The position numbers were made by a program, and so were the translations under genes. The notes beneath the pieces are model-generated. The model did no database searches. It was not told the DNA's origin and worked only from the letters and a program-made list of their open reading frames with translations. DNA of 64,000 bases. Origin: Bacteroidales bacterium. GTDB taxonomy: Bacteria; Bacteroidota; Bacteroidia; Bacteroidales; JACABE01. The DNA lies in the NCBI GenBank assembly GCA_023251515.1, contig JAHEYQ010000017.1, forward strand, positions 274 through 64,273. Direction: 5' to 3'. Within the stretch, counting starts at the first letter, position 1. Each line of letters starts with the position of its first letter. Below, piece by piece: positions 5,101 to 34,039 of this stretch.

Positions 5101-5938
5101 TAAATCGCTTGAGTTGTTTTTTGAAAATAAATTTAAAGATATAATCATATTTGCTGATGAATATTGTATAACTCAATCAATATCAAATCTTATTGATAAT
5201 GCAATTAAATATACAAATAATGGATTTGTAAAAATTTATTTCTCATATAATAATTACAATCAGCTTGTTGTGAATGTGGAAGATACCGGAATTGGTATTT
5301 CTGATGAATTTATGCAAAAGATATTTATGCCATATTCTCAGGAAGAAACTGGTTATAGCAGAAGTTATGAAGGTGTTGGTTTAGGTTTATCTTTGGTTAA
5401 AAAAATGTTGACTTTAAATCATTCAATAATTTCTGTGAAAAGCAAAAAGAATGAAGGTAGTTGTTTCTCAATTACTTTTAAAAATAGCAGTTTAAATTTA
5501 GATACAATAAGTGAAAAACAAAATATTATGAAAACTAATGAAAATGAATTTGATAAAGTAATAACACCTGTTGAAATGATGCCTGTGATATTGGCTGTTG
5601 AAGATGATAAGGCCAGCAGAGATTACTTAGGAATTGTATTAAAGAAAAAATACAATCTGATTTTTGCCAATTCTGCAGATGAAGCATTACAGCTATTGTT
5701 GGAAAACGAAGTAAATCTGATACTTATGGATATTTCTATCAGAGGTAGCATGAATGGATTGGAATTAACAAGAAAAATAAGGACAGAATTAAAAAATACT
5801 GATTTGCCTATTATTGCACTTACTGCTCATGCATTTGAAAAAGACAAATTGTCTTCACTCGACGCTGGCTGTAATTTACATTTAACAAAGCCATTATTCA
5901 GAAATGACTTATTGAATGCCATCGAAAAATTTGTATAA
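2114..5938 (+). CDS. Hybrid sensor histidine kinase REC-(PAS)x~6-HisKA-HATPase-REC
   Basis: N-terminal REC (LIEDE...IITDY), repeated PAS/PAC ends (DITERK-like), H-box [38 protein letters not shown]-terminal REC (ILMDIS...TKP). No obvious TM segment. Confidence 0.92.
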
Positions 5939-5949
5939 TTTATAAAAAA

Positions 5950-7896
5950 ATGGAATCAGAATCGACCAACTTAATACATATCTTATTTGTAGAAGATACT
6001 TATCATGATATGGAATTGGCTGTTAGGGAATTAAGAAAAGAAGAAATGCAGTTTTTTTCAAAAATTGTAGATACTGAACTTGATTTAATTCGTGAATTAA
6101 ATGAATTTAAGCCCGATATCATAATTTCAGATTATTCGATGCCCGTTTTTGATGGCATGAAGGTTATTAAAGTTGTGAAACAGTTCAATCCCGAAATCCC
6201 TGTTATCGTTTTTACGGGTTCAATTAATGAAGAAACAGCTGTAAAATGCATGAAAGCAGGTGCCTCCGATTATGTGCTTAAAGAAAAAATTAAACGACTC
6301 CCATTTGCAGTAAAAGAAGCTTTGGAGAAAAAACAAATACTTAAAGATAAAAAAGAAACCGAAAATGCGCTTTTATTTAGTAATTACAGGTTTAAGGAAT
6401 TTGCTGAAAAACTTACTGATGTAATATTTATTACTGACATTGAGGGCTTTATTACATATATATCTCCTTCTTCAGAAAAAATATTTGGTATTAAGGCAAT
6501 TGAAATGATAGGGAAATTATATCTACATCTAGTATCAGAAGATGATATAGAAAAAACACAATTGTCTTTCAAAAATCTGATTCTATCAGGAGAACCGACA
6601 ATTAATTTAAACCTGAGATTGAAATATGTTGATAATAAAGAGATTAATTGTGAACTAAATGCTTCATTAATAATGCCCGATTCAGAAACTAGAGGTGTTA
6701 TAGGTATAATAAGGGATATCAGCGATAGAAAAGAATGGGAACGGATTTTGCTCGAATCTAAAGAAAAAGCCGAATTATCTGATAAGATTAAGGATGCTTT
6801 TATTGCGAATATTTCACATGAAATAAGAACTCCATTGAATGGAATTCTTGGTATGACTGAACTTATTGAAGAAGCATTTAAAGAATATGCTACTCCAGTT
6901 GAGATTAATTTTTTTAAAACCATAAAAAATTCCAGTTCAAGATTAATAAGAACAGTTGATTTAATATTGAATTTTTCCCGAATTCAGATCGGCGATTTTC
7001 CAATTAAACCTGTGGGTATTGATTTACTTCATTTTGTCAATAAAATTTTAGCCGAATTTGAATTGATTGCCGAAAGGAAAGGTTTGAAAATTAAATTATT
7101 CTCAGAAATAGAAACCCCATTTGTATTATTCGACGAATATTGTTTGTCTGTAATTGTTTCAAATATTGTAGATAATGCATTGAAATTCACTAATAAAGGT
7201 TTAGTTAATCTGAAAATATACAAATATGATGATTTTATCAAATTAGATATTTCAGACACAGGAATGGGAATGTCATTTGAATTTATTTCACGAATTTTTA
7301 CTCCTTATAATCAAGAGGAAGTAGGTTATGGAAGAAGTTATGAAGGTATAGGTTTGGGACTTTCTTTATCAAAACAATTAATAGAATTAAACCATTCTAC
7401 TTTAACAGTTAATAGTATAAAAAATCAAGGAACTACTTTTTGTATTACTTTCAAAAATATAATTGAAAACAATCAAAATACTAACATAAATAATACAATG
7501 CAAAATACAGATATTCAACTAAATTCCGAAATAAAGCATAATATTTTGGTTGTTGAAGACGACTTTTCAAGTCAGGAATTATTAAATATTATCCTGAAAA
7601 AATCTTTTTTACCTCAATTTGCAGTTTCCGGTGAAGATGCATTAGAATTGATAAAAAACAATAATTTTGATATGATACTGATGGATATTTCTCTAAAAGG
7701 AAGCATCAATGGTTTGCAATTAACCAAAATGCTTAGAAACAATCCATTATATAGCAATATTCCAATTATTGCTGTTACAGCCCATGCGTTTGAAAACGAC
7801 AGAATAGCTTCATTAGAAGCTGGTTGCAATGATTATATTTCGAAACCAATTCGTAAAAATGATTTATTAAATATTATCAATAAAAATTTAGATTAA
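5950..7896 (+). CDS. Hybrid sensor histidine kinase REC-PAS-HisKA-HATPase-REC
   Basis: FVEDTYHD...IISDYSMP REC, one [32 protein letters not shown]-terminal REC (ILMDISL...SKP). Confidence 0.92.
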   Translation: MESESTNLIHILFVEDTYHDMELAVRELRKEEMQFFSKIVDTELDLIRELNEFKPDIIISDYSMPVFDGMKVIKVVKQFNPEIPVIVFTGSINEETAVKCMKAGASDYVLKEKIKRLPFAVKEALEKKQILKDKKETENALLFSNYRFKEFAEKLTDVIFITDIEGFITYISPSSEKIFGIKAIEMIGKLYLHLVSEDDIEKTQLSFKNLILSGEPTINLNLRLKYVDNKEINCELNASLIMPDSETRGVIGIIRDISDRKEWERILLESKEKAELSDKIKDAFIANISHEIRTPLNGILGMTELIEEAFKEYATPVEINFFKTIKNSSSRLIRTVDLILNFSRIQIGDFPIKPVGIDLLHFVNKILAEFELIAERKGLKIKLFSEIETPFVLFDEYCLSVIVSNIVDNALKFTNKGLVNLKIYKYDDFIKLDISDTGMGMSFEFISRIFTPYNQEEVGYGRSYEGIGLGLSLSKQLIELNHSTLTVNSIKNQGTTFCITFKNIIENNQNTNINNTMQNTDIQLNSEIKHNILVVEDDFSSQELLNIILKKSFLPQFAVSGEDALELIKNNNFDMILMDISLKGSINGLQLTKMLRNNPLYSNIPIIAVTAHAFENDRIASLEAGCNDYISKPIRKNDLLNIINKNLD

Positions 7897-20225: not shown

Positions 20226-21194
20226 TTGAAGACATACGAGGAAATTAAATCTATTGCAATGAATACCATTGCTAATGAGGCTGAATCTATTGTTAATCTA
20301 AAGAATTACATTAATGATGATTTTGCAAAAACTGTTGAATTAATTTATTATTCGCAAGGAAGGACAGTTATAACAGGTATTGGGAAAAGTGCAAATATTG
20401 GTTTGAAAATAGTTTCAACTTTAAATTCTACCGGAACACCGGCTATTTTTATGCATGCAGCCGATGCTATCCACGGAGATTTGGGGATAATTCAACCTGA
20501 TGATGTAGTTATTTGTATATCAAAAAGTGGAAATACTCCTGAAATAAAAGTTTTGGTCCCAATTCTAAAAGATATGGGAAATAAGCTGATAGCTTTGGTT
20601 GGAAATACAAGTTCTTATCTGGCCCTACAATCTGACTTTATTATCAATAGTAGTGTTGAAAAAGAAGCTTGTCCAAATAATTTGGCACCTACATCAAGCA
20701 CTACAGCTCAGTTGGTTATGGGTGATTCATTAGCGGTTGCCTTGCTCGAATGCCGTGGTTTTACTACTCAGGATTTTGCAAAATATCATCCCGGAGGCAG
20801 TCTGGGCAAACAATTGTATCTTAAGGTTTTCGATTTGGCAATTAACAATGAAGTTCCTAAAGTATCACCTGACGAAAGCATCAAAAATACCATAATGGAA
20901 ATAACATCTAAACGTCTGGGAGCTGTCGCTGTTGTTGAAAATGAATTAATTAAAGGAATCGTTACTGATGGAGATTTAAGACGAATGCTTCAAAAAGAAA
21001 ATTCAATAGATTTGCTTTTTGCAAAAGATATTATGTCGTTAAATCCGAAAACAATTTGTAAAGATGAACTTGCGATAAATGCTTTACAGATTATGAGACA
21101 AAATAATATTACACAACTGCTAGTGGTTGATGAAGATAACAAATATTTTGGAGTTATTCATTTGCATGATTTATTAAAAGAAGGGATAATTTAA
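20226..21194 (+). CDS. kdsD: KpsF/GutQ family arabinose-5-phosphate isomerase (SIS + 2 CBS)
   Basis: TGIGKSA, HGDLG, ISKSGNT, EACPNNLAPTSST, YHPGGSLG, TDGDLRR. Confidence 0.88.
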   Translation: MKTYEEIKSIAMNTIANEAESIVNLKNYINDDFAKTVELIYYSQGRTVITGIGKSANIGLKIVSTLNSTGTPAIFMHAADAIHGDLGIIQPDDVVICISKSGNTPEIKVLVPILKDMGNKLIALVGNTSSYLALQSDFIINSSVEKEACPNNLAPTSSTTAQLVMGDSLAVALLECRGFTTQDFAKYHPGGSLGKQLYLKVFDLAINNEVPKVSPDESIKNTIMEITSKRLGAVAVVENELIKGIVTDGDLRRMLQKENSIDLLFAKDIMSLNPKTICKDELAINALQIMRQNNITQLLVVDEDNKYFGVIHLHDLLKEGII

Positions 21195-21195
21195 T

Positions 21196-21552
21196 ATGGG
21201 TAAAACGCTTGATGATTTTAATAATTATCGTTTGAAAATGAATGAGAAAATATTGAACTCGAATGATAAAACGATAAAAAGGATATTCAATGCAGATACA
21301 AATGCTTATTTGCAAGGTGCTTTGGATGTTAAAACGAAAGAATTGATGGGATTATTGGCTTCATTGGTCTTGAGATGCGATGATTGTGTGCGATATCATT
21401 TAATTAAATGCTATGAAAATCAGGTTGGTACAGATGAATTGTTCGAAACATTCGGAATTGCTAATCTTGTTGGCGGAACAATATGTATTCCTCATACAAG
21501 ACGTGCGGTTGAATTTTGGGAAGAATTGATTTCCGAAAACAATAAAAATTAA
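21196..21552 (+). CDS. Carboxymuconolactone decarboxylase / AhpD-like protein
   Basis: GALDVKTKEL...LRCDDCVRYH (CxxC plus H). Confidence 0.8.
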   Translation: MGKTLDDFNNYRLKMNEKILNSNDKTIKRIFNADTNAYLQGALDVKTKELMGLLASLVLRCDDCVRYHLIKCYENQVGTDELFETFGIANLVGGTICIPHTRRAVEFWEELISENNKN

Positions 21553-21589
21553 ATATCAAAGTTACCTATTTTTAAAATAGTTTTAGAAA

Positions 21590-22315
21590 ATGATTTTAAG
21601 AACAGAAAATGTTATTAAAAAATATAAAAGCAGAACTGTAGTAAATGGAGTTTCTGTAAATGTTGAAAGAGGCGAGATTGTGGGTTTATTAGGCCCGAAT
21701 GGTGCCGGAAAAACTACAACTTTTTATATGATTGTAGGGCTGATAAAACCTCTTTCTGGTAAGGTTTTTCTCGATGATTTGGATATAACTGAAATGCCAA
21801 TGTACAAGCGTGCTCAGAATGGGGTTGGTTATCTGGCACAAGAAGCTTCAGTTTTTCGTCAATTGAGTGTGGAAGATAATATTAAAGCCGTTCTGGAGTT
21901 TACAAAATTATCAAAGGTTGAGCAACATGAAAAATTAGAGACTCTTCTGAATGAGTTTGGACTTCAACACATTAGAAAAAGCATGGGCATACAATTATCC
22001 GGTGGCGAAAGAAGAAGAACTGAAATTGCCAGAGCCTTGGCGGTTGATCCAAAATTTATACTTTTAGATGAGCCATTTGCAGGAGTAGATCCAATTGCTG
22101 TAGAAGATATTCAGGCTATTGTAAAAAAGCTTAAAGCAAAAAATATTGGTGTTCTTATTACCGATCACAATGTTCACGAAACGCTAACGATTACTGATAG
22201 AGCCTATTTGCTTTTTGAAGGCTCTATACTTAAATCGGGAACTGCCGAGGAACTTGCCGAAGATGAACATGTAAGAAAGGTATATCTGGGTAAAAACTTT
22301 GAACTAAGAAAATAG
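21590..22315 (+). CDS. lptB: LPS export ABC transporter ATPase
   Basis: [48 protein letters not shown]. Confidence 0.95.
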
Positions 22316-23487: not shown

Positions 23488-23745
23488 AATCGTTTATTTT
23501 ATTGAATTGTAAAATTAATAAATCTATTGTGATTACAGAATATTTTTTTGAAACATAGTATATTTTTTTTGAGATTATAGTATAAATATAACATAATAAG
23601 GTAGATGTAAATTTATTTAATAATTTAAATAACAAGAGTCTAAAAATAAATTTCATAGATTAGATTAAAATGTATAATTTTGAACTGGGTTATTTTGAGA
23701 CATCAAAATAGAACCGCCCGTAAATAAATATTTTATAATTTTAAT

Positions 23746-25125
23746 ATGAATAGGATAAGAATATTAATATTGGATGATGATTCGGCAGTCAGAGAAGAGT
23801 TAGGCGAATTTTTAATTGAAAAAAAATTTGAAACACATACAGCCAGTCTTCCATCTGAAGCTATGGAGATACTGAAAGAGAAGGAGATAGATATCGCAAT
23901 TATTGATGTTAAACTTCCTGAAAAAGATGGTATTTCAGCATTAAAGGACATAAGAAAATTATATCCGGATCTTGAAGTAATTATGATTTCTGGTCATGGA
24001 GATATGGAAATGGTGATTTCTGCAATGCGTGCAGGTGCTAATGATTTCTTTTTGAAGCCTTTCCGGTCAATTGATGTTGAGAATGCTATTGAAAGAACCA
24101 AGCGTTTTTTAAGTATTTCCAAAGAACTAAAAGAGGTAAAATCTAATTATGATTTGATTACCAAAGAGTTAAAATCAAAATTCAGGTATGATTTTATTGC
24201 AGAAAGCAAAGCGATGAAGGATGTATTGAATATGGTTGCCAGAGTTGCAAAAGCAGATAAAACTACAGTTTTGATAACAGGTGAAAGTGGAACTGGTAAG
24301 GAAATGATTGCGAGTACAATCCATTATTTAAGTGCTAGGAAAAACTATTATTTTAATGCTGTTAATTGCTCTGCTATTCCTGATACTTTGTTTGAAAGTG
24401 AATTTTTTGGTCACAAGAAAGGAAGTTTTACTGATGCAGTAGAAAATAAATCGGGTTTGTTTGAGGTTACGAATAAAGGAACTCTTTTTCTGGATGAAAT
24501 TGGTGATTTAAAATATGAATTGCAAGGCAAATTTTTAAGGGTTCTTGAGGAAGGTAAAATATCAAAAATAGGCTCAAGTAAAGTGATTGATATTGATGTT
24601 AGAGTTGTAGCTGCAACAAACAGAGATTTAAGAAAGATGAGTGATGAAGATAAATTTCGTTTGGATTTGTTGCATCGATTGAACTCATTCGTAATCAATC
24701 TTCCTCCTTTGCGTGAAAGGAGGGAAGATATTCCTGCATTGATAGATTATTATCTGGAACAATTTGCAAAACAGTCGAATAAAAAAATAAGTGGCATAGA
24801 TATTAATACCGTTCAAATTTTAACTGATTATTCTTTCCCGGGGAATATAAGGGAGTTAAGAAATATGTTGGAACGTGCAGTAATTTTGTGTGATGATGAC
24901 AAACTCAAATTAAAACATTTTCAGTTTAATTATGGAAATAGCAGTCAATCAAATGTTTTTAGTAACAATGTTGTTTCAAATTTGAATTTGGCTGAAAATG
25001 AGAGAGAATTAATAAAATCGGCATTGCAACAAACTCAAAACAATAAAACACATGCAGCCAAACTTTTAGGTATTGATAGAAAAAGATTATTAAGAAAAAT
25101 AAATTATTACTCAATTAATAACTAA
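23746..25125 (+). CDS. Sigma54-dependent enhancer-binding response regulator (NtrC/AtoC family)
   Basis: REC (ILDDD...IIDVKLP), Walker A GESGTGKE, ESEFFGHKKGSFTDA loop, Walker B LFLDEIG, PGNIREL, Fis-type HTH. Confidence 0.93.
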   Translation: MNRIRILILDDDSAVREELGEFLIEKKFETHTASLPSEAMEILKEKEIDIAIIDVKLPEKDGISALKDIRKLYPDLEVIMISGHGDMEMVISAMRAGANDFFLKPFRSIDVENAIERTKRFLSISKELKEVKSNYDLITKELKSKFRYDFIAESKAMKDVLNMVARVAKADKTTVLITGESGTGKEMIASTIHYLSARKNYYFNAVNCSAIPDTLFESEFFGHKKGSFTDAVENKSGLFEVTNKGTLFLDEIGDLKYELQGKFLRVLEEGKISKIGSSKVIDIDVRVVAATNRDLRKMSDEDKFRLDLLHRLNSFVINLPPLRERREDIPALIDYYLEQFAKQSNKKISGIDINTVQILTDYSFPGNIRELRNMLERAVILCDDDKLKLKHFQFNYGNSSQSNVFSNNVVSNLNLAENERELIKSALQQTQNNKTHAAKLLGIDRKRLLRKINYYSINN

Positions 25126-25132
25126 TTGTTGC

Positions 25133-25244
25133 TGGGCTAAAATGACTTGGTGGTGTATTTTGGCTTATTTTATTTATTTTTGTAAAGATCATATAATCAG
25201 AAGTGTATGTTTATATAATATGAAAGTGGGGTTAAAATGGCTGG
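25133..25244 (+). promoter_or_regulatory. Candidate upstream activator sites for the sigma54 promoter
   Basis: TGGGCTAAAATGAC (25133), TGGTGTATTTTGGC (25151), GGGGTTAAAATGGC (25228), about 65-175 bp upstream of the -24 element. Confidence 0.5.
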
Positions 25245-25309: not shown

Positions 25310-25325
25310 TGGCACGCAATTTGCA
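25310..25325 (+). promoter_or_regulatory. Sigma54 (-24/-12) promoter
   Basis: TGGCACG-CAAT-TTGCA fits consensus TGGCACG-N4-TTGCW with correct GG/GC spacing. Confidence 0.85.
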
Positions 25326-25335
25326 ATTACATATT

Positions 25336-25424
25336 TGCTTATTCAAAATAAGTTAATAATTTTATATTTTATCTTTTATCTTCGAGGGGTTGGGGGCTGT
25401 CTATTTAGACAGCCCTTTTTTTTT
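25336..25424 (+). ncRNA. Putative sigma54-dependent small RNA (~88 nt)
   Basis: Lies between the -24/-12 promoter (predicted +1 near 25336) and a GC-rich terminator. No ATG-initiated ORF. U-rich body and G-rich 3' segment. Confidence 0.62.
25394..25424 (+). terminator. Rho-independent terminator of the putative sRNA
   Basis: gggctgtct-attt-agacagccc followed by T9. Confidence 0.85.
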
Positions 25425-25428
25425 ATAA

Positions 25429-25464
25429 AAAAAAGGTGCTGATTAAGTCATCAGCACCTTTTTT
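25429..25464 (-). terminator. Terminator of the GSIII gene (second, separate hairpin)
   Basis: aaaaaaggtgctgat-taagtc-atcagcacctttttt, 14 bp past the GSIII stop. Confidence 0.85.
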
Positions 25465-25477
25465 ATTTATTTTAAGA

Positions 25478-27670
25478 TTAATTAATAAATAATAATTCCC
25501 TATATTTTGGCAAAGGCCATAGTTCATCATCTATCATTAACTCAAGACTATCGGTATGAAATCTGATTTGTTCAAAGAATGGTAAAATAAGATTGCAATA
25601 AGCTTTTGCCTTGTCGTGGCTATTTTCAAAACGGTTAGCATGTTTTCTGGCTTCAATCATTTCATTTACCAGCAATTTGATTTGAGTAATATGACCAGAA
25701 ATATCTTTGATATTTTGAATTTGGGTTTTTGCATTTTCCTCCCAAATATCATTAGGTAGAATACTTTGCAAACCTTTGACATTTTCTATCAGAATATTTT
25801 GATAACGGATTGCTACAGGTAAAATATGATTTATAGCTAAATCGCCAATAGTACGTGATTCTATTTGTATTTTCTTTGTATAATTTTCGAGTTTTATTTC
25901 CATTCTTGCCTCTAATTCTCTGTGAGACAAAACGCCTGCTTTTTCATACATATAAATAACGTCTATGTCGGCAAATGCTTTTAAAGCATCAGGTGTGGAT
26001 GAAATATTTGATAATCCCCGGCTTTTTGCTTTAAGAATCCAATCAGTACTATAATTATTCCCATCAAATCTTACTTTTCTTGTATCTGTTATATATTTTT
26101 TCAGAATTTTAGAAATAGCTTCGTCTTTAGTTAGTTTTTTAAAAATAAGTTTGGCTACATCATTTTTAAAACTTTCCAATTGGTTAGCAACCATTGTGAT
26201 AAGAGCAATCATGGGTGCTGCAGAGTTTGCAGATGAGCCAACTGCTCTGAATTCGAATTTATTACCAGTGAAAGCAAAAGGAGAAGTTCGATTTCTGTCT
26301 GTATTATCAAGTAGTATTTCAGGTATATGTGAAATGTCAAGACTTTGACGTTTTTTGTTTTTGGTACTGCCAACAATTGTATCTTTACTTTTTTCAATAG
26401 CATTTAAAATAGCTGTAAGTTGTTCTCCGATAAATACAGACATAATTGCGGGAGGAGCTTCGTTTCCACCAAGACGTAAATCGTTGCTTGCCGAAGCTAT
26501 TGATGCTCTTAGTAAATCATTTTTGTTGTTAACAGCTTGAATGATATTTAAGAAAAAAGTAAGGAATTTTAAATTTGATTCCGGAGTTTTGCCTGGTGTT
26601 AATAAGTTTTTTCCACTATCAGTCATTAATGAGAAATTATTATGTTTTCCAGAACCATTAATTCCCGAATATGGTTTTTCGTGAAGTAATACTCTGAAAT
26701 GATGACGTCTGGCAATTTTCCCCATAAGATCCATTAATAATACATTATGATCAATTGCAATGTTGATTTCCTCATAAAGCGGAGCGCATTCAAATTGATT
26801 AGGAGCTACTTCATTATGGCGTGTTCTTAATGGAATTCCCAACAGATAAGCCTGATATTCAAAATCTTTCATGAAGTTAATTACTCTTTCAGGAATACTT
26901 CCAAAATAATTATCTTCCAATTGTTGATCTTTAGCTGAAGCATGGCCAAATAATGTTCTTCCTGTTAGAGCCAGATCGGGACGTGCATTGTAAAGTGCTT
27001 CATCTACAAGAAAATATTCCTGTTCGATTCCTAATGTTGCTTTTACTCTTTTTACAGTAGGGTCAAAAATCTGAGCAACTTCCGTTGCTGTTTTGTCAAG
27101 ATAATGCAGAGCTTTTAACAGAGGGGCCTTATAATCAAGAGCTTCACCTGTATATGATACGAATATGGTTGGAATACATAATGTTTTTTCAATAATAAAT
27201 GCTGGAGAAGTTGGATCCCAAGCAGTGTAACCTCTTGCTTCAAAGGTATTTCTGATTCCACCATTTGGGAAGCTTGATGCATCTGGTTCCTGTTGTATCA
27301 GACTACTACCATCAAAAAACTCAACTGCTTTGCCTTTATCATCTATATTGAAAAACGAATCGTGTTTTTCAGCTGAACTCCCTGTAAGTGGTTGAAACCA
27401 ATGGGTATAGTGTGTTGCCCCTTTTGAAATTGCCCAGGTTTTCATTGCAGAAGCTATTTCATCAGCACTTGTTCTGTCAATTTTTTCTGAATTATTTATG
27501 GCATTTAATACTTTTTTGAAAGTGTCATTGCTCAAATATTGTTGCATACTTTCATTATTGAATGTCATTTCTCCAAAAATTGACGATACTTTTTCAAACG
27601 ATGGCAATATTACTGGATTTCCAGTTCTATTTGTCGAAATTTCTATTGCTCTGAATCTGTTATTCCCCAT
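25478..27670 (-). CDS. glnA: Glutamine synthetase type III
   Basis: THYTHWFQPLTG, QQEPDASSFP, HNEVAPNQFE, HEKPYSGINGSGKHNN, DRNRTSPFAFTGNKFEFRA. Start moved to MGNNRF (27670), with a TATATTTG -7 element at 27720-27727. Confidence 0.93.
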   Translation of the reverse strand: MGNNRFRAIEISTNRTGNPVILPSFEKVSSIFGEMTFNNESMQQYLSNDTFKKVLNAINNSEKIDRTSADEIASAMKTWAISKGATHYTHWFQPLTGSSAEKHDSFFNIDDKGKAVEFFDGSSLIQQEPDASSFPNGGIRNTFEARGYTAWDPTSPAFIIEKTLCIPTIFVSYTGEALDYKAPLLKALHYLDKTATEVAQIFDPTVKRVKATLGIEQEYFLVDEALYNARPDLALTGRTLFGHASAKDQQLEDNYFGSIPERVINFMKDFEYQAYLLGIPLRTRHNEVAPNQFECAPLYEEINIAIDHNVLLMDLMGKIARRHHFRVLLHEKPYSGINGSGKHNNFSLMTDSGKNLLTPGKTPESNLKFLTFFLNIIQAVNNKNDLLRASIASASNDLRLGGNEAPPAIMSVFIGEQLTAILNAIEKSKDTIVGSTKNKKRQSLDISHIPEILLDNTDRNRTSPFAFTGNKFEFRAVGSSANSAAPMIALITMVANQLESFKNDVAKLIFKKLTKDEAISKILKKYITDTRKVRFDGNNYSTDWILKAKSRGLSNISSTPDALKAFADIDVIYMYEKAGVLSHRELEARMEIKLENYTKKIQIESRTIGDLAINHILPVAIRYQNILIENVKGLQSILPNDIWEENAKTQIQNIKDISGHITQIKLLVNEMIEARKHANRFENSHDKAKAYCNLILPFFEQIRFHTDSLELMIDDELWPLPKYRELLFIN

Positions 27671-27948
27671 AAAACTATAAAATTTAATATATATTAACAA
27701 GTAAATAATAAATATGTTGCAAATATAATCTATTTATTTATTTTATTGTCAAAAAAATATAATTCAGATATAAATTTATCAAAAAAATAAATCTATTATT
27801 GATTTTTTCCAAAATCAGGATTATAAATCATAGTGCATTTATTTATAATTTTGATCTTTTTATTACTTATTTTTATACATAAATAAAGCCTGAAATGTTT
27901 AAAAATCAGGCTTTTGCTATAATAAAGTTTGTAATGTCTTGTGATATA

Positions 27949-30207
27949 TTATTTAATAATTATTTCGTCAGCAAAAATCCAGGTTTTTCCGCCAGCTCCC
28001 GGATGCCAATCGGGACAAACTCCCATGTTTTTTGCTACTATTTTAATGTATTGTGTTTTAATTATCATTGGCAAATCAATTTTATATCTTCTAACCAGCA
28101 TTTCAACATCTTTTGCAGATACCGGAGCGGTTAAAACTCCAATTGATCGAAATTCTATTCCATCTTTAGATATAAAATATTCAAGTTGAGGTGGGAAAAA
28201 TATCCATGAAGGTGTACTTTGCAAAAAGCCTGTAGAAATTGAAGAAAATTCAGTTTCACTTCCTAAATCAATAACTGCAATTAAGTCGTTTCCTTCAAAT
28301 CCTTGCCAGTTTCCGTCTCTGAAATTTGAAGTGCCCAATATACCATCGGTAAGTGTTGCATCTCCATTTGCCCGATAATTGGGGCTATAAGGATATTTAA
28401 ATCTGCAAACTTTTCCGGTACTTTTCGACATTTTGAATTCTCTTTCATAATAAAACTTATTGTCGTCGTTTCCATTGGCTAAAACTGCTATCTTTAGATT
28501 TAGCGAATCTTTAGCTGTTATTGCTTTGGTATATTTAATAGCTTTTCTGTCGGGGTTTGTACCATTGGTTGTATAATATATTTCGGTATCATCCTGTCCT
28601 TTTCCCAGATTTACTGTAATCATCTTTGTTGAAATATCAGAATTTGCATTAAGTATCAAAGGATCGCATTCGAAACCATAATTTACACCTAATGCCTTTA
28701 AGGTTTGATATTGTAATTGTACTTTTTTTCTGAATTCAGTAAAATTTCTATTTTTAGGATATGTCCATAAAACTTCACTCATTGCTAAAATTCTGGGAAA
28801 CATTCTGCCATCCACCTTTTCCTGTGGTGCTCTTTCCGACCATAAATTGCACTCGCCACCAAGTATGTGTTTTTTTTCATCCTCATTTAATTCAGCAGGA
28901 ATTGGATCGAAAGAGTAAACTTTTTCCAGATTTATATTTGAAATATCATAGTCGAAATAAGCATGACTGGTTGGAGAAACTATAGCATCATGTCCGGAAC
29001 GTGCGGCAGCAATAGCACCTTCCATCCCTCTCCACGACTGAACACTAGCACCTTTTGATAAACCACCTTCCAGAATTTCGTCCCAGCCAATAAGTTTTCG
29101 TCCGTTTTTCTGAAGATATTCGTCTATTTGACTAATTAACCATGTTTGAAGTTCATGTTCGTTTTTCAGATTATTGTTTTTCATCCTATTTTGACATTTT
29201 TCGCAATGTTCCCAGCGGAATTTAGGAGCTTCGTCGCCACCAATATGAATATAATCAGAAGGAAATAGCGAAATTACTTCTGACATAACATCTTTCAGAA
29301 ATGCTAATGTAGAATCATTTCCGGCACAATAAATATCTTTAAAAACGCCCCATTGAGTTTCTACTTCTATTTGTTTTCCGGTACATGATAAATAAGGATA
29401 AGATGCAATTGCAGCTACAGAATGTCCGGGAAGTTCAATTTCGGGAACTACATTTACAAATCGTTCTTTGGCATAAGCTACAATTTCGCGAATATCATCC
29501 TGAGTATAAAATCCACCATATCTACTTCCGTCCGATTCAGTTCTCCATGCTCCTGTTTCGGTTAGTTTTGGATACTTTTTAATTTCAACACGCCAACCCT
29601 GATCTTCAGTTAAATGCCAATGCAGAGTGTTCATTTTGTAATATGCCAGCAAATCAATATAGCGCTTTACAAATTCTTTATCCATAAAATGCCTGCCGCA
29701 ATCGAGCAGCATTCCACGCCAAGGAAAACGGGGGATATCAGTTATCTCGAGACATGGAATTCTAATTTCTTGTTCACTAAGCCCTTCTTTCGATTCAAAA
29801 TGGGCAGGAAATAACTGCCTTAATGTTTGAATTCCATAAAATAAACCATTTGGTTTATAGGCAACTATTTTAATAAATGTTTCATTTACATCAAGTTCAT
29901 AACCTTCTAATCCAAATACTGATTTATTATTATCTAATGATAAAATAATACCTTTTGTTTGATTAAACCCTGAGTTAATTACCCTAATATCTTTAATATT
30001 TGCTTTTTCTGATAATAAAATTTTTAAATAATCAGCAATTTTAGCTACAACAGAATCATTATCAGAAGTTATAATCTGAATTTTATCACTGAATCTATAA
30101 AAGCCTTTTTTTAATCCAACAGAAGTTGGTTGAGGTATAATTTTAATCTGAGCATACAAACCCATTGTAAACAATAATATTAATGCAATAAGTATAGTTT
30201 TTTTCAT
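27949..30207 (-). CDS. GH20 beta-N-acetylhexosaminidase with Fn3/chitobiase-type and discoidin-like C-terminal modules
   Basis: PRFPWRGMLLDCGRHF, HWHLTEDQGWR, HIGGDEA catalytic motif, GGECNLWSE. Confidence 0.92.
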   Translation of the reverse strand: MKKTILIALILLFTMGLYAQIKIIPQPTSVGLKKGFYRFSDKIQIITSDNDSVVAKIADYLKILLSEKANIKDIRVINSGFNQTKGIILSLDNNKSVFGLEGYELDVNETFIKIVAYKPNGLFYGIQTLRQLFPAHFESKEGLSEQEIRIPCLEITDIPRFPWRGMLLDCGRHFMDKEFVKRYIDLLAYYKMNTLHWHLTEDQGWRVEIKKYPKLTETGAWRTESDGSRYGGFYTQDDIREIVAYAKERFVNVVPEIELPGHSVAAIASYPYLSCTGKQIEVETQWGVFKDIYCAGNDSTLAFLKDVMSEVISLFPSDYIHIGGDEAPKFRWEHCEKCQNRMKNNNLKNEHELQTWLISQIDEYLQKNGRKLIGWDEILEGGLSKGASVQSWRGMEGAIAAARSGHDAIVSPTSHAYFDYDISNINLEKVYSFDPIPAELNEDEKKHILGGECNLWSERAPQEKVDGRMFPRILAMSEVLWTYPKNRNFTEFRKKVQLQYQTLKALGVNYGFECDPLILNANSDISTKMITVNLGKGQDDTEIYYTTNGTNPDRKAIKYTKAITAKDSLNLKIAVLANGNDDNKFYYEREFKMSKSTGKVCRFKYPYSPNYRANGDATLTDGILGTSNFRDGNWQGFEGNDLIAVIDLGSETEFSSISTGFLQSTPSWIFFPPQLEYFISKDGIEFRSIGVLTAPVSAKDVEMLVRRYKIDLPMIIKTQYIKIVAKNMGVCPDWHPGAGGKTWIFADEIIIK

Positions 30208-31094
30208 AAAGCTGAATTTTTTTTTGATTTAATACTAATTTGAGCAAGTATCATTCCAGCAAGCATTAGCGAACAACCTAAAATGCCTCTGTATGTCATT
30301 GTTTCATTTAGAATAAGCCAGCCTCCAATAACTGCAAATAATGATTCGGTACTAAGGATTATAGCAGCCAATGAAGGATGAGCATTTTTTTGAGCTATAA
30401 TTTGCAATGTAAATGCTACTGCAACAGATAGCAAACCTCCATACAAAATTGGTATCGCTGCTTTCAGGATTCCATCCCATATTATAGGCTCTGAAAAAAT
30501 GGCAAATGTAAGACTTAGTAATCCGCATATAATAAATTGTATTACTGCAATTACGATAGCATTTCCAATAGGGGCATATTTACTTATAATTAAAACATGA
30601 AATGCCCAGATAAAAGCACTCATAAATACATATATATCTCCTTTTGAAGCAGTAAAATTCTCGTTTACGCTAAGAAAATAGATTCCGAAAAGTGCCAAAA
30701 CAGCACCTATCCATACATTTAAACGTGTTTTTTGTGAAAAGATTAATCCAAAAATTGGGACCATAACAACATAAAATCCAGTAATAAAGCCTGCATTTCC
30801 GGCTGTTGTATAAATCATTCCAATTTGTTGCAATGAAGCCCCGCCAAATAGGAGCAATCCACACCAAATACCTCCTTTTACAGAATACTGCATTTGAAAT
30901 TTGGAGAATTGTTTTGGTTTTTGAGCCAATGCAATAGGAATAAGCAATAAGCCACCCAGTAAAAAGCGGCAGGCATTAAAAGTAAACGGACCCGTAAACT
31001 CCATGCCTGCCCTTTGTGCCACAAAGGCAAAACCCCATATTATAGCTGTAATCAGCAATAATAAATCAGAACCTGTTTTGCTTAGTGGCTTCAT
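30204..31094 (-). CDS. DMT/EamA family transporter
   Basis: About 10 TM segments, IWGFAFVAQ, AGFITGFYV, ESLFA. ATGA overlap with GH20. Confidence 0.88.
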   Translation of the reverse strand: MKPLSKTGSDLLLLITAIIWGFAFVAQRAGMEFTGPFTFNACRFLLGGLLLIPIALAQKPKQFSKFQMQYSVKGGIWCGLLLFGGASLQQIGMIYTTAGNAGFITGFYVVMVPIFGLIFSQKTRLNVWIGAVLALFGIYFLSVNENFTASKGDIYVFMSAFIWAFHVLIISKYAPIGNAIVIAVIQFIICGLLSLTFAIFSEPIIWDGILKAAIPILYGGLLSVAVAFTLQIIAQKNAHPSLAAIILSTESLFAVIGGWLILNETMTYRGILGCSLMLAGMILAQISIKSKKNSAL

Positions 31095-31105
31095 TGATAT
31101 GTTGA

Positions 31106-34039
31106 TTATTTGATTAAGATTTCATCAGCAAAAATCCATGCTTTGCCCCCTGCTCCCAAATGCCAGTCGGGGCATTTTCCGATATTTGTTGCTACAACTT
31201 TTACATATTGAGCTTTAACTCCATTAATTTTCTTTACCAAATCTTGTATCATCACATCCGGTTTTTGTAAGGGAACCTCATTTTTCACAATACCAACAGA
31301 TTTGAAAAGAATTCCATCTGTTGACACAAAGTATTCAACTTGTGATGGATAAAAAATCCATGCACCCATATCCTGTAAAAATCCCATACGAATTTCGCGG
31401 ATAGTTTGAGATTCTTTTAGTTTTACTGTAGCTTCCAGATTTACACCTTCATAACCTTGCCAGGTACCTGTTTTGAAATTTTCACCGCCTCTGATCATAT
31501 CAATCAGTGCCAAATCGCCACCAGCTGCATATTGATTTGCATAAGGATTTTTTATAGTAATGCTTCTTCCTTCAGGAATTAAAAATAAAGTTGCGGTTAA
31601 TAATTTACTGTCTGGTAAACCTTCTTTTACAGCAATTGCATTTATTGTAGTTGTTTCTTTAATATCAATTGCTTGTGTGTATTTTGCAGATTTTTTGGTT
31701 GGCATTGAACCATCTAAAGTATAATAAATTTCAGTATTTTTTTCTAAACAACCCAATTCAACTTTTTGCTCTTTCAGAAAAGTAGCTTTGCCTTTAGCAA
31801 TAAATGGAACCGGAATAATCAAATGTTCATTAATGGATGTCATAGGTTCATTTTCATTTCCAATACCCCATTTTTCAGAAGCTTTATTATCCATTTCAAA
31901 AATTATTTCACCACCATTAATAATATCATTGTGAGTAATATAAGATTTGTTGTAATCTTTTCCATTCAGTTTTGCCGATTTAATGTAAAAATTCTTCTTA
32001 GAAATATTTTCAGCTTTAATTGTAAATATTTTCCCATTTTCAAGTTTGACGCTTATTTTCTTAAACATTGGTGTTCCAATTGCATAAACATCAGTTCCGG
32101 GAGTTACAGAATAGAATCCCATAGCACTCATAACCAGCCATGAAGACATTTGCCCGCAATCTTCATTGCCACATAAACCATCTGGTTTATTTGAATACAT
32201 TTCTTTTTGGATGCGATGAACCAGTTCTTGAGTTTTGAAAGCTTTTCCAACATAATTATATAAATATGCAATATGATGACTTGGTTCATTTCCATGAGCA
32301 TATTGACCTATAAGCCCTGTTATATCAGCTTGTTCGCGACCAGAAGTTTTTGATTCCGCATTAAAAAGCATATCCAGTCTTTCTGCCAGTTTCTCTTTTC
32401 CTCCAAGATAATTTGCAAAACCGCTAATATCCTGAGGGACTGAATAGCTATATTGCCATGCATTGGCTTCTGTATAATTGAAATTTACTTCAGATGGTTC
32501 AAATGGTGAGAACCAAAGGTTTTGCATACGGGCGCGCATAAAGCCTGTAGAAGGATCTAATAAATTTTTATATGATTGGGCTCTCTGAATATAAATTTTG
32601 TAATCATCCATTTTATTCAAAGATTTGGCCATTTGAGCAATACACCAATCATCGTAAGCATATTCCAATAATTTTGAGACAGATTCTCCTTCTTCATTCG
32701 CAAAAATTATTCCATATGATTTATAAGATTTCATACCCAATTTTTCTTGTTCTGCACTGGTTTTCATAGCAGCATAAGCTTTTTCAACATCAAAATCACG
32801 AAGGCCTTTCATATATGCATCAACGATTACTGGTACTGCGTGATATCCTATCATACAACCGGTTTCGTTACCTGATAGTTCCCAAACTGGTAAAAATCCA
32901 CCTTCCTCCCATTGTTTGATAAATGTTTTAATAAAATCTGTTGTTCTCTTTTGCTGGGTTAATGTGTATAAGGGATGTGCAGCTCTGTATGTATCCCATA
33001 AAGAAAAGACTGAATAATAATCAAAATCTGACTGATGTGTTTTTAAATCTCTACCTCTGTATTGTCCATCAACATCGCTATATAAATTCGGATTCAGAAA
33101 TGCGTGATACATAGCTGTATAAAATATTGTTTTCTGATCATCAGAACCACCTTCAACTTCAATTTTGCCTAATTCATTATTCCATATTGAATCAGCATCT
33201 TTTACAACTTTATCGAAGTTCCAGTCAGAAATTTCAGTTTCCAGATTTTTACGGGCATTTTCGATACTAACTGCTGATATACCAACCTTTATCATTATAG
33301 ATTCATCTTTTTTTATATCAAAAGTTAAAAATGCTTTCAGATTGGCACCTTTAGCCTCTTTTAATAATGTAGCACTATCATTTACAGCAATATTATATGA
33401 CTTTATCGATTTAGAAAATTTAGCAACAAAAAATACTTTTTGGTCATTAGCCCAAGCCATAGAACGTCTGTATCCTTCAATTTCATCTGGACTATTTATT
33501 TTTATTGAAGATTCAATAACTTTATCACGATGAAGTAAATCTATCAAAATGTTAGAATTATTAGAATCATGAAATGTATATTTGTGAAATCCAACACGTT
33601 TGGTAGTTGTTAATTCAGCATCAACATTGTATTTATCTAATTTCACTTTAAAATAACCCGGTTTTGCAATTTCGTTTTTATGGTTGAAAGCAGAAGCATA
33701 TTCTTTATTGCTCCATTTATATTCACCAGTGGTTGGCATAATTAATACATCTCCATAATCAGAACAACCTGTGCCGCTTAAGTGAGTATGTGAAAAGCCA
33801 TATATAATACTATCAGAATAATGATAGCCACCACAACCGTCCCATCCATCTAAACGAGTATCTGGGCTAAGTTGAACCATGCCAAATGGGAGTGAAGCAC
33901 CCGGATAAGTATGTCCATGCCCACCTGTTCCGATAAATGGATTTACATAATCAGTAATTTTCCCTTTTTTATTTGTATGACATGATAAAAGGGAAATAGC
34001 TAAAACAAAGGAGATAAAAGTGATTTTTTTTAAATTCAT
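31106..34039 (-). CDS. GH92 alpha-1,2-mannosidase family lipoprotein
   Basis: LLSC lipobox, YVNPFIGTGGHGHTYPGA, FSHTHLSGTG, SLWDTYRA, TEANAWQY, GNEPSHH, GNEDCGQMS. Confidence 0.92.
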   Translation of the reverse strand: MNLKKITFISFVLAISLLSCHTNKKGKITDYVNPFIGTGGHGHTYPGASLPFGMVQLSPDTRLDGWDGCGGYHYSDSIIYGFSHTHLSGTGCSDYGDVLIMPTTGEYKWSNKEYASAFNHKNEIAKPGYFKVKLDKYNVDAELTTTKRVGFHKYTFHDSNNSNILIDLLHRDKVIESSIKINSPDEIEGYRRSMAWANDQKVFFVAKFSKSIKSYNIAVNDSATLLKEAKGANLKAFLTFDIKKDESIMIKVGISAVSIENARKNLETEISDWNFDKVVKDADSIWNNELGKIEVEGGSDDQKTIFYTAMYHAFLNPNLYSDVDGQYRGRDLKTHQSDFDYYSVFSLWDTYRAAHPLYTLTQQKRTTDFIKTFIKQWEEGGFLPVWELSGNETGCMIGYHAVPVIVDAYMKGLRDFDVEKAYAAMKTSAEQEKLGMKSYKSYGIIFANEEGESVSKLLEYAYDDWCIAQMAKSLNKMDDYKIYIQRAQSYKNLLDPSTGFMRARMQNLWFSPFEPSEVNFNYTEANAWQYSYSVPQDISGFANYLGGKEKLAERLDMLFNAESKTSGREQADITGLIGQYAHGNEPSHHIAYLYNYVGKAFKTQELVHRIQKEMYSNKPDGLCGNEDCGQMSSWLVMSAMGFYSVTPGTDVYAIGTPMFKKISVKLENGKIFTIKAENISKKNFYIKSAKLNGKDYNKSYITHNDIINGGEIIFEMDNKASEKWGIGNENEPMTSINEHLIIPVPFIAKGKATFLKEQKVELGCLEKNTEIYYTLDGSMPTKKSAKYTQAIDIKETTTINAIAVKEGLPDSKLLTATLFLIPEGRSITIKNPYANQYAAGGDLALIDMIRGGENFKTGTWQGYEGVNLEATVKLKESQTIREIRMGFLQDMGAWIFYPSQVEYFVSTDGILFKSVGIVKNEVPLQKPDVMIQDLVKKINGVKAQYVKVVATNIGKCPDWHLGAGGKAWIFADEILIK

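Follow-up and report, generated by a model that had tools for sequence, protein, structure and literature searches.

A probable new small RNA family of uncultured Bacteroidales with conserved sigma-54 promoters, in a predicted circuit resembling LuxO-Qrr

The forward-strand segment 25337-25424 of the window, by which is meant the whole 64-kb (64,000-nucleotide) stretch of DNA that was analysed, is very probably a real and previously undescribed regulatory RNA gene of about 87 nt, with a predicted +1 at 25336/25337. The segment bears the marks of a stand-alone small RNA gene, namely a promoter of its own, an intrinsic terminator, flanks that differ from locus to locus and no conserved open reading frame. 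The explanation favoured here, held with somewhat better than even confidence, is that it is one of three sibling genes for a trans-acting small RNA that would be driven by sigma-54 and an NtrC-type regulator and would act post-transcriptionally by pairing.

The promoter that an earlier note on this DNA had pointed out is indeed a perfect TGGCAC-N5-TTGC, TGGCACGCAATTTGC at 25310-25324 (+), and displays the -24 GG (25311-12), the -12 GC (25323-24) and the exact spacing expected of a sigma-54 promoter; the element as a whole reads TGGCACGCAATTTGCA (25310-25325, +). It is the sole zero-mismatch occurrence in the 64-kb window, and the 4.3-Mb genome holds seven such matches on both strands, compared with a composition estimate of about two per genome and about 0.03 per window. 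Among the related copies of the RNA that have upstream sequence, all 20 keep TTGGCA[C/T]-N4-TTTG at a fixed distance to the RNA, while the promoter spacer and the segment between -12 and +1 vary. Sequence conservation starts at G25337, one base past the +1 predicted from the -12 GC. Elsewhere in the genome, one perfect sigma-54 promoter (C17:26146, -) lies directly downstream of the gene of another enhancer-binding protein, and a further one (C39:60792, +) is found about 2.8 kb upstream of its enhancer-binding protein gene.

The RNA is laid out as a 5' hairpin (25337-25353), some 37 nt of unstructured, U-rich sequence that includes the motif CGAGGGG, and a terminator, and a 91-nt RNA folds at -23.4 kcal/mol (z = -3.6 relative to shuffles). 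The descriptions of the transcript in the earlier note largely stood. ATG is absent from 25326-25424, in agreement with the stretch of about 88 nt for which no ATG-initiated frame had been seen, and the three UUUUAU repeats recur with a 7-nt period at 25360-65, 25367-72 and 25374-79, as three UUUUAUN heptads within 25360-25380 in the unstructured region. The RNA has its own terminator as claimed, a hairpin at 25392-25417 followed by T9 (25416-24), which a terminator scan delimits to 25392-25424 (+) with an 11-bp GC-rich stem and an ATTT loop. The second hairpin is likewise a separate one: it occupies 25429-25464 outside the RNA, is flanked by an A-run and a T-run, and adjoins the stop of the convergent gene for a type III glutamine synthetase (GSIII; 25478-27700, -; Pfam GSIII_N, Gln-synt_C), for which it would be the terminator. 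This hairpin is missing from the other two paralogs of the RNA and from the relatives, and GSIII is the convergent neighbour at this locus only. The G-rich stretch proposed as a pairing seed is present at 25383-25396, but its role as a seed did not hold up as stated, since the conserved part is CGAGGGG only and the remainder belongs to the variable 5' arm of the terminator.

The genome itself contains three near-identical copies of the RNA in a DNA search, one on the contig of the window (C34) and the others at C10:7122 (+) and C21:42735 (-). From GCTTATTC to the T-run, these paralogs differ in one terminator base only. Each is preceded by TGGCACG-N4-TTG[C/A], and the 12 nt that separate the -12 element from GCTTATTC vary from copy to copy. 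The unit described in the earlier note is real, and it is multicopy, with three siblings in this genome, a fact that had escaped the note. Counting the relatives, the promoter and terminator unit recurs at the three loci of this genome and at 20 or more others, and on comparison this recurrence of promoter, RNA and terminator together is more than chance. In a DNA run that contains the organism (X2), depth reaches 15.6 in the unitig for 25337-25408, in contrast to 3.9 and 6.8 for its flanks, and this higher depth marks the boundaries of the repeat.

Not one of the first 54 nt of the RNA (25337-25390) varies between three genera, the regulator proteins of which are just 66-75% identical. In the terminator stem, 7 of 11 pairs show compensatory changes; the observed covariation was reached by none of 500 shuffles, and slid controls collapse. 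No variation is seen in the 5' hairpin or in a weak second helix, and covariation therefore neither supports nor refutes the pairing of either. The earlier note had made its proposal depend on conservation of promoter and terminator behind orthologs, and both are conserved behind the orthologous regulators. It is extremely improbable that the unit is a dispersed repeat, a mobile-element remnant or a tiny-peptide gene devoid of small RNA function, even though it is multicopy with sharp repeat boundaries. The copies keep a functional-looking promoter, phased upstream sites, a covarying terminator and one orientation, lie at loci that are syntenic across species, and are accompanied by neither terminal repeats nor a transposase, and a copy that lost its promoter (in genome G011, described below) has decayed. 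As to a peptide, there is no ATG, and the only open frame, which persists in some copies, needs a TTG start codon, which only one of the three paralogs has, and indels shift the frame in relatives; peptide coding was rejected.

The family is narrowly distributed. One GTDB family of uncultured Bacteroidales, spanning three genera, has 17 genomes, of which 14 carry the RNA in one to three copies each, and in these 14 genomes the covariance model built for the RNA (R1) scores 91-111 bits. R1 found no match outside the family in a 401-genome sample of the order Bacteroidales (about 397 other genomes), and an exact 30-mer scan of some 185,000 species returned matches confined to the family. A metagenome scan with a 19-mer recovered six true copies and zero new diversity. 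The carriers are uncultured and are represented by MAGs of lake, groundwater and wastewater origin, and the known range of the family amounts to about 17 uncultured species. Weaker R1 matches within the family (38-46 bits) were set aside as plain terminators having no sigma-54 promoter, with the exception of the decayed G011 remnant. Permissive Rfam scans of 3 kb and of 105 nt returned no family at threshold; sub-threshold matches to the L20 leader, AniS and STnc370 are caused by the terminator and by U-richness, and were dismissed.

The protein encoded at 23746-25125 (+) is a 459-residue NtrC-type response regulator and sigma-54 enhancer-binding protein with Pfam REC, AAA+ Sigma54_activat and HTH_8 domains. 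It presents a Walker A motif (GESGTGKE), the receiver residue Asp54 and a sigma-54 contact loop, GSFTDA, that is kept in all orthologs, and it does not attain the cut-off of any named NCBIfam equivalog, AtoC, NtrC, LuxO and GlrR among them. The canonical contact loop is GAFTGA; the loop of this regulator differs from it, with the F and T kept, and this counts against the favoured explanation. A further point against assigning the RNA to this regulator is that the genome encodes at least five other enhancer-binding proteins. The features expected of an activator are nonetheless present, in that an AAA+ protein bearing the contact loop is combined with phased sites about 80-200 bp upstream. Upstream of the regulator, the window contains genes for a KdsD-like SIS/CBS protein, a CMD-family protein and an LptB-like ABC ATPase (20226-22315). 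In proteobacteria lptB classically precedes rpoN; here the LptB-like gene precedes the gene of a sigma-54 activator, with two reverse genes in between, and does so directly in several relatives.

Presence of the regulator goes with that of the RNA across the family. In seven genomes of the genus the regulator lies directly upstream of one RNA copy, with about 185 bp from the stop codon to the copy, and a regulator ortholog occurs in 13 of the 14 carrier genomes and in none of the three non-carriers, which possess only paralogs of 40-45% identity. The 13 orthologs comprise those of 12 carriers (66-88% identity) and a partial one in G007, where the N-terminal 183 residues, 76% identical to the G005 protein, are found at a contig end; in the fourteenth carrier (G012), an RNA copy starts at base 5 of its contig. 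No RNA copy was found beside the regulator in the sister genera g2 and g3, and none of 29 loci of regulator homologues in other families (50-57% identity) has a sigma-54 small RNA unit within +/-1.5 kb. At one locus of G010 (L104, G010:C297, about 1750-2240), the position right after the regulator gene, at which relatives have the promoter of the small RNA, is taken up by a GC-rich insertion of structured appearance that starts ...CCAGGTGCGTGGGCTTGTCC... and runs off the end of the contig; the insertion has no Rfam match at gathering score and may be a mobile element or an intron.

The locus of G011, a sister species, amounts to a natural knockout. Comparison of G011 (L105, G011:C27, about 5806-6612) with G008 (L080, G008:C8, 3338-6100), whose flanking proteins are 87-99% identical, reveals that about 2.4 kb have been lost in G011; gone with them are the gene for the LptB-like ABC ATPase, that of the regulator, the promoter with its activator sites, and the RNA's 5' half. 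What is left of the RNA, its 3' part, has about five substitutions at positions that are invariant elsewhere and retains the terminator hairpin. This decayed remnant argues that the invariance of the RNA depends on its expression. The core of the original proposal, a two-component system acting through sigma-54 on a small RNA, is accordingly supported comparatively, by the co-occurrence of regulator and RNA and by their joint loss.

The remaining components of such a circuit can be located in the genome. The rpoN gene, whose absence would have spoken against the reading, is present as a 491-aa frame on another contig (C78; Sigma54_DBD, 171.9 bits), and rpoN occurs in 17 of 17 genomes of the family. 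Description of the regulator as an orphan was correct insofar as it is unlinked to a kinase gene here, but in the sister genera g2 and g3 it forms an operon with a multi-PAS histidine kinase. The genome has a 53%-identical ortholog of this operon kinase at C46:59574-62414, unlinked to the regulator. This histidine kinase is 946 aa long, carries a membrane anchor at its N terminus and contains several PAS domains. An ortholog of the kinase is found in 8 of the 14 carrier genomes only, so the orphan label is partly right. Genomes that bear the kinase tend to have two to three copies of the small RNA, and those that do not, one.

Upstream of the promoters, regions that are otherwise unalignable have in common a 17-bp palindrome, TGnGTYAWWWTRACnCA, phased at about -82, -160 and -178 from TGGCA. 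At the window locus the predicted proximal activator site (site 1, GGGGTTAAAATGGCTGG, 25228-25244) stands at -82, with its centre about -100 from the start site, and two predicted distal sites follow: a weaker one of 8.4 bits at -159 (site 2, TGGTGTATTTTGGCTTA, 25151-25167) and an imperfect 17-bp palindrome with a matrix score of 12.9 bits at -177 (site 3, TGGGCTAAAATGACTTG, 25133-25149). The -160 position recurs in many relatives. A matrix derived from proximal sites only gave 17 hits of at least 12 bits between -200 and -100 in the 21 regions that lie upstream of copies, compared with 0.03 expected, and distal-type sites occur at -139 to -183 upstream of 16 of the 21 copies; conversely, when the matrix was trained on distal sites alone, the highest-scoring proximal position fell between -80 and -84 in each of the 21 regions. 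The genome has 307 loose sigma-54-like sites, of which those of the three RNA genes alone have convincing palindromes, and four others have single weak ones. Since the combination of palindrome and promoter is limited to these three genes, the predicted direct regulon consists of the small RNA genes alone. Position and co-occurrence suggest that the regulator binds the palindromes. A single activator-like site of 16.5 bits (TGGGTTATTTTGAGACA, 23686-23702) is predicted 60 nt before the start codon of the regulator gene, and autoregulation is tentatively possible; this site is conserved in the closest relative, G009, only, and not in five more distant orthologous loci.

The genes that lie downstream of the RNA bear on a different explanation, by which the element would be a cis-acting promoter with a leader and attenuator for the next gene, for example that of adenine deaminase at the C10 locus or of a 472-aa protein at C21. 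Two of the three copies in this genome, as well as the copies of G009, G010 and G012 that precede adenine deaminase genes, do have a co-directional gene 50-280 nt downstream. At the window copy and in G001, G003, G005, G006, G007 and G008, however, the gene that follows is convergent, so that a leader function is ruled out at most regulator-adjacent copies. Downstream genes are moreover unrelated between loci, and past the regulator-adjacent copy five species have the gene for MqnE (aminofutalosine synthase), G009 and G010 that for a C-terminal processing peptidase, and this genome that for GSIII. The terminator is strong and covarying, and no alternative antiterminator pairing is evident. A leader function for the element is thus regarded as very improbable.

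The sequence of events proposed for the favoured explanation, a sigma-54-driven trans-acting small RNA, can be stated as follows. The multi-PAS kinase at C46:59574-62414, the best candidate, would phosphorylate the regulator, and the phosphorylated regulator would bind two to three of the 17-bp palindromes, whose centres lie about 100, 178 and 196 bp before the start. Thus bound, it would open the -24/-12 promoter for transcription of the small RNA by sigma-54 RNA polymerase, which, to judge from sequence and comparison, would run from about 25336/25337 to the covarying hairpin and T-run. The small RNA genes are predicted to be the only direct targets of the regulator, as the qrr genes are for LuxO. 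The RNA itself would act post-transcriptionally by way of its invariant, mostly unstructured U-rich region (nt 17-53), most likely in pairing with A-rich 5' UTRs or start-codon regions of several mRNAs, and an RRM-type RNA-binding protein may take part in the pairing. Precedent for such a mode is found in Bacteroides small RNAs composed of a single-stranded region and a terminator, which pair with AU-rich translation-initiation regions and bind the RRM protein RbpB (PMC11697453).

Base pairing as the mode of action is given a little less than an even chance on the present analysis. Neither duplex energies calculated against 3,227 crude 5' regions of the genome nor the number of complementary stretches of at least 13 nt counted with blastn rose above reversed or shuffled controls, and no notable pairing was seen with the mRNAs of the regulator, the kinase, rpoN, GSIII or ade. 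The best single candidate target is a site at C52:31146-31160 in the 5' UTR of a minus-strand gene (29895-31109) for a BNR-repeat-like protein with a T9SS sorting domain, where a 15-nt perfect complement (17 nt with wobble) to nt 33-47 of the small RNA lies 37-51 nt before the start codon. This site, a weak candidate, is an invariant island in the close relatives G012 and G009 only and is absent in G010, G003 and G001. Four RNA-labelled runs contain the sequence of the small RNA, as contigs of 215-255 nt and depth 2-4 that may represent DNA carry-over or read-through; since these contigs include promoter DNA, transcription of the small RNA is only predicted. The remaining runs with the sequence are of DNA or of unspecified type.

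The same gene under the same control could alternatively yield a protein sponge, the heptads and AU-rich single strand of which would titrate an RbpB-like RRM protein or ribosomal protein S1, in the way that CrcZ titrates Hfq/Crc and RsmZ titrates RsmA. Such a role would be in keeping with the tandem arrangement of three U-rich 7-nt repeats where the RNA is unstructured, several gene copies would suit a mechanism that depends on dosage, and complementarity to mRNAs is not enriched. In known sponge RNAs, the short motifs alone are conserved and their number and spacing drift, and it is here that the alternative falters, for the 54 nt are wholly invariant across three genera, with inter-repeat and non-repeat positions included. 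Three motifs would also be few for a sponge. The motifs of established sponge RNAs, GGA in loops for CsrB/RsmZ and A-rich AAnAAnAA with variable spacers for CrcZ, are absent from the small RNA. The genome does encode one RRM_1 protein (C72:1140-1349), and the preference of RbpB for single-stranded AU-rich RNA (PMC11697453) would fit a sponge. Sequestration is accordingly considered unlikely, and a pairing RNA of the Qrr kind is preferred to a sponge because the whole block is conserved, inter-repeat positions included.

Carried further, the pairing reading leads to a more speculative and, at present, doubtful proposition, that of a switch having the RNA as its sole direct output. In such a switch, a PAS kinase would act through the NtrC-type regulator and sigma-54 on one to three small RNAs, an arrangement that would have evolved independently of LuxO-Qrr in a phylum lacking Hfq, and the RNA with its 54 invariant nt would be a hub with multiple partners, through which a redox, metabolite or population signal would reset translation at many AU-rich start regions. 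If true, this would provide the first defined regulon, and the first circuit from an enhancer-binding protein to a small RNA, for sigma-54 in Bacteroidota. The sigma-54 regulons and small RNA networks of this phylum are poorly mapped, and a literature search found no description of a sigma-54-dependent small RNA in Bacteroidota. The present unit is a compact module with a natural knockout and a convergent parallel to the LuxO-Qrr design, the full cis-regulatory logic of which is legible from sequence: a kinase candidate, a regulator, three predicted sites, a promoter, an RNA and a terminator. The module illustrates how RNA families of uncultured lineages may be assigned to regulators by phylogenetic profiling.

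Circuits of this kind are known from other bacteria. In the GlrK/GlrR-GlmY system of Enterobacteria and the CbrA/CbrB-CrcZ and CrcY systems of Pseudomonas, a two-component enhancer-binding regulator acts at a sigma-54 promoter, and the small RNA gene lies beside the regulator genes. The unit described here resembles GlrR-GlmY and CbrB-CrcZ in just this combination of a two-component enhancer-binding regulator with an adjacent sigma-54 small RNA. GlmY and CrcZ sequester proteins by means of specific motifs, directed at RapZ in the one case and comprising A-rich Hfq/Crc sites in the other, whereas those motifs are absent here and no RNA homology emerged in the Rfam scans; the regulator, too, scores 302 bits compared with a GlrR cut-off of 763. 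Within the phylum, the closest likeness in form is to the FopS/GibS RNAs of Bacteroides thetaiotaomicron (RF04319), multicopy paralogous RNAs of which FopS is produced from a housekeeping sigma-ABfr promoter (PMC11697453). Shared with these are the phylum and order, the multicopy state at a length of about 70-90 nt, a single-stranded conserved region followed by a terminator and, as probable partners, AU-rich translation-initiation regions and an RRM protein. The small RNA described here nonetheless differs from FopS in its 5' hairpin, its conserved sequence and its sigma-54 promoter, and the FopS model (RF04319, BTncRNA_FopS) gave seven weak hits over the whole genome at E <= 10, none of them at the RNA loci C34:25610, C10:7149 and C21:42621.

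Bacteroidota is, to our knowledge, a phylum without Hfq, and the nearest counterpart in design comes from elsewhere, from the LuxO/sigma-54/Qrr1-5 system of Vibrio. There, an NtrC-type regulator fed by kinases attaches to upstream sites and activates the sigma-54 promoters of near-identical sibling small RNAs (PMC4878744). The likeness lies in sibling small RNAs as direct outputs of the regulator, as is predicted here, with one copy beside the regulator gene, and in a long, absolutely conserved unpaired region followed by a terminator. The differences are equally clear. There is no similarity to Qrr in sequence or structure, the Rfam matches at E <= 10 do not include Qrr (RF00378), the regulator scores 313 bits against the LuxO equivalog cut-off of 800, and the present unit belongs to another phylum and has another activator palindrome and a multi-PAS kinase as the candidate sensor. 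To judge by these parts, the unit is like Qrr/LuxO in design and is not a member of that system: the small RNA family is new, and the type of circuit, which resembles LuxO-Qrr, is one already known.
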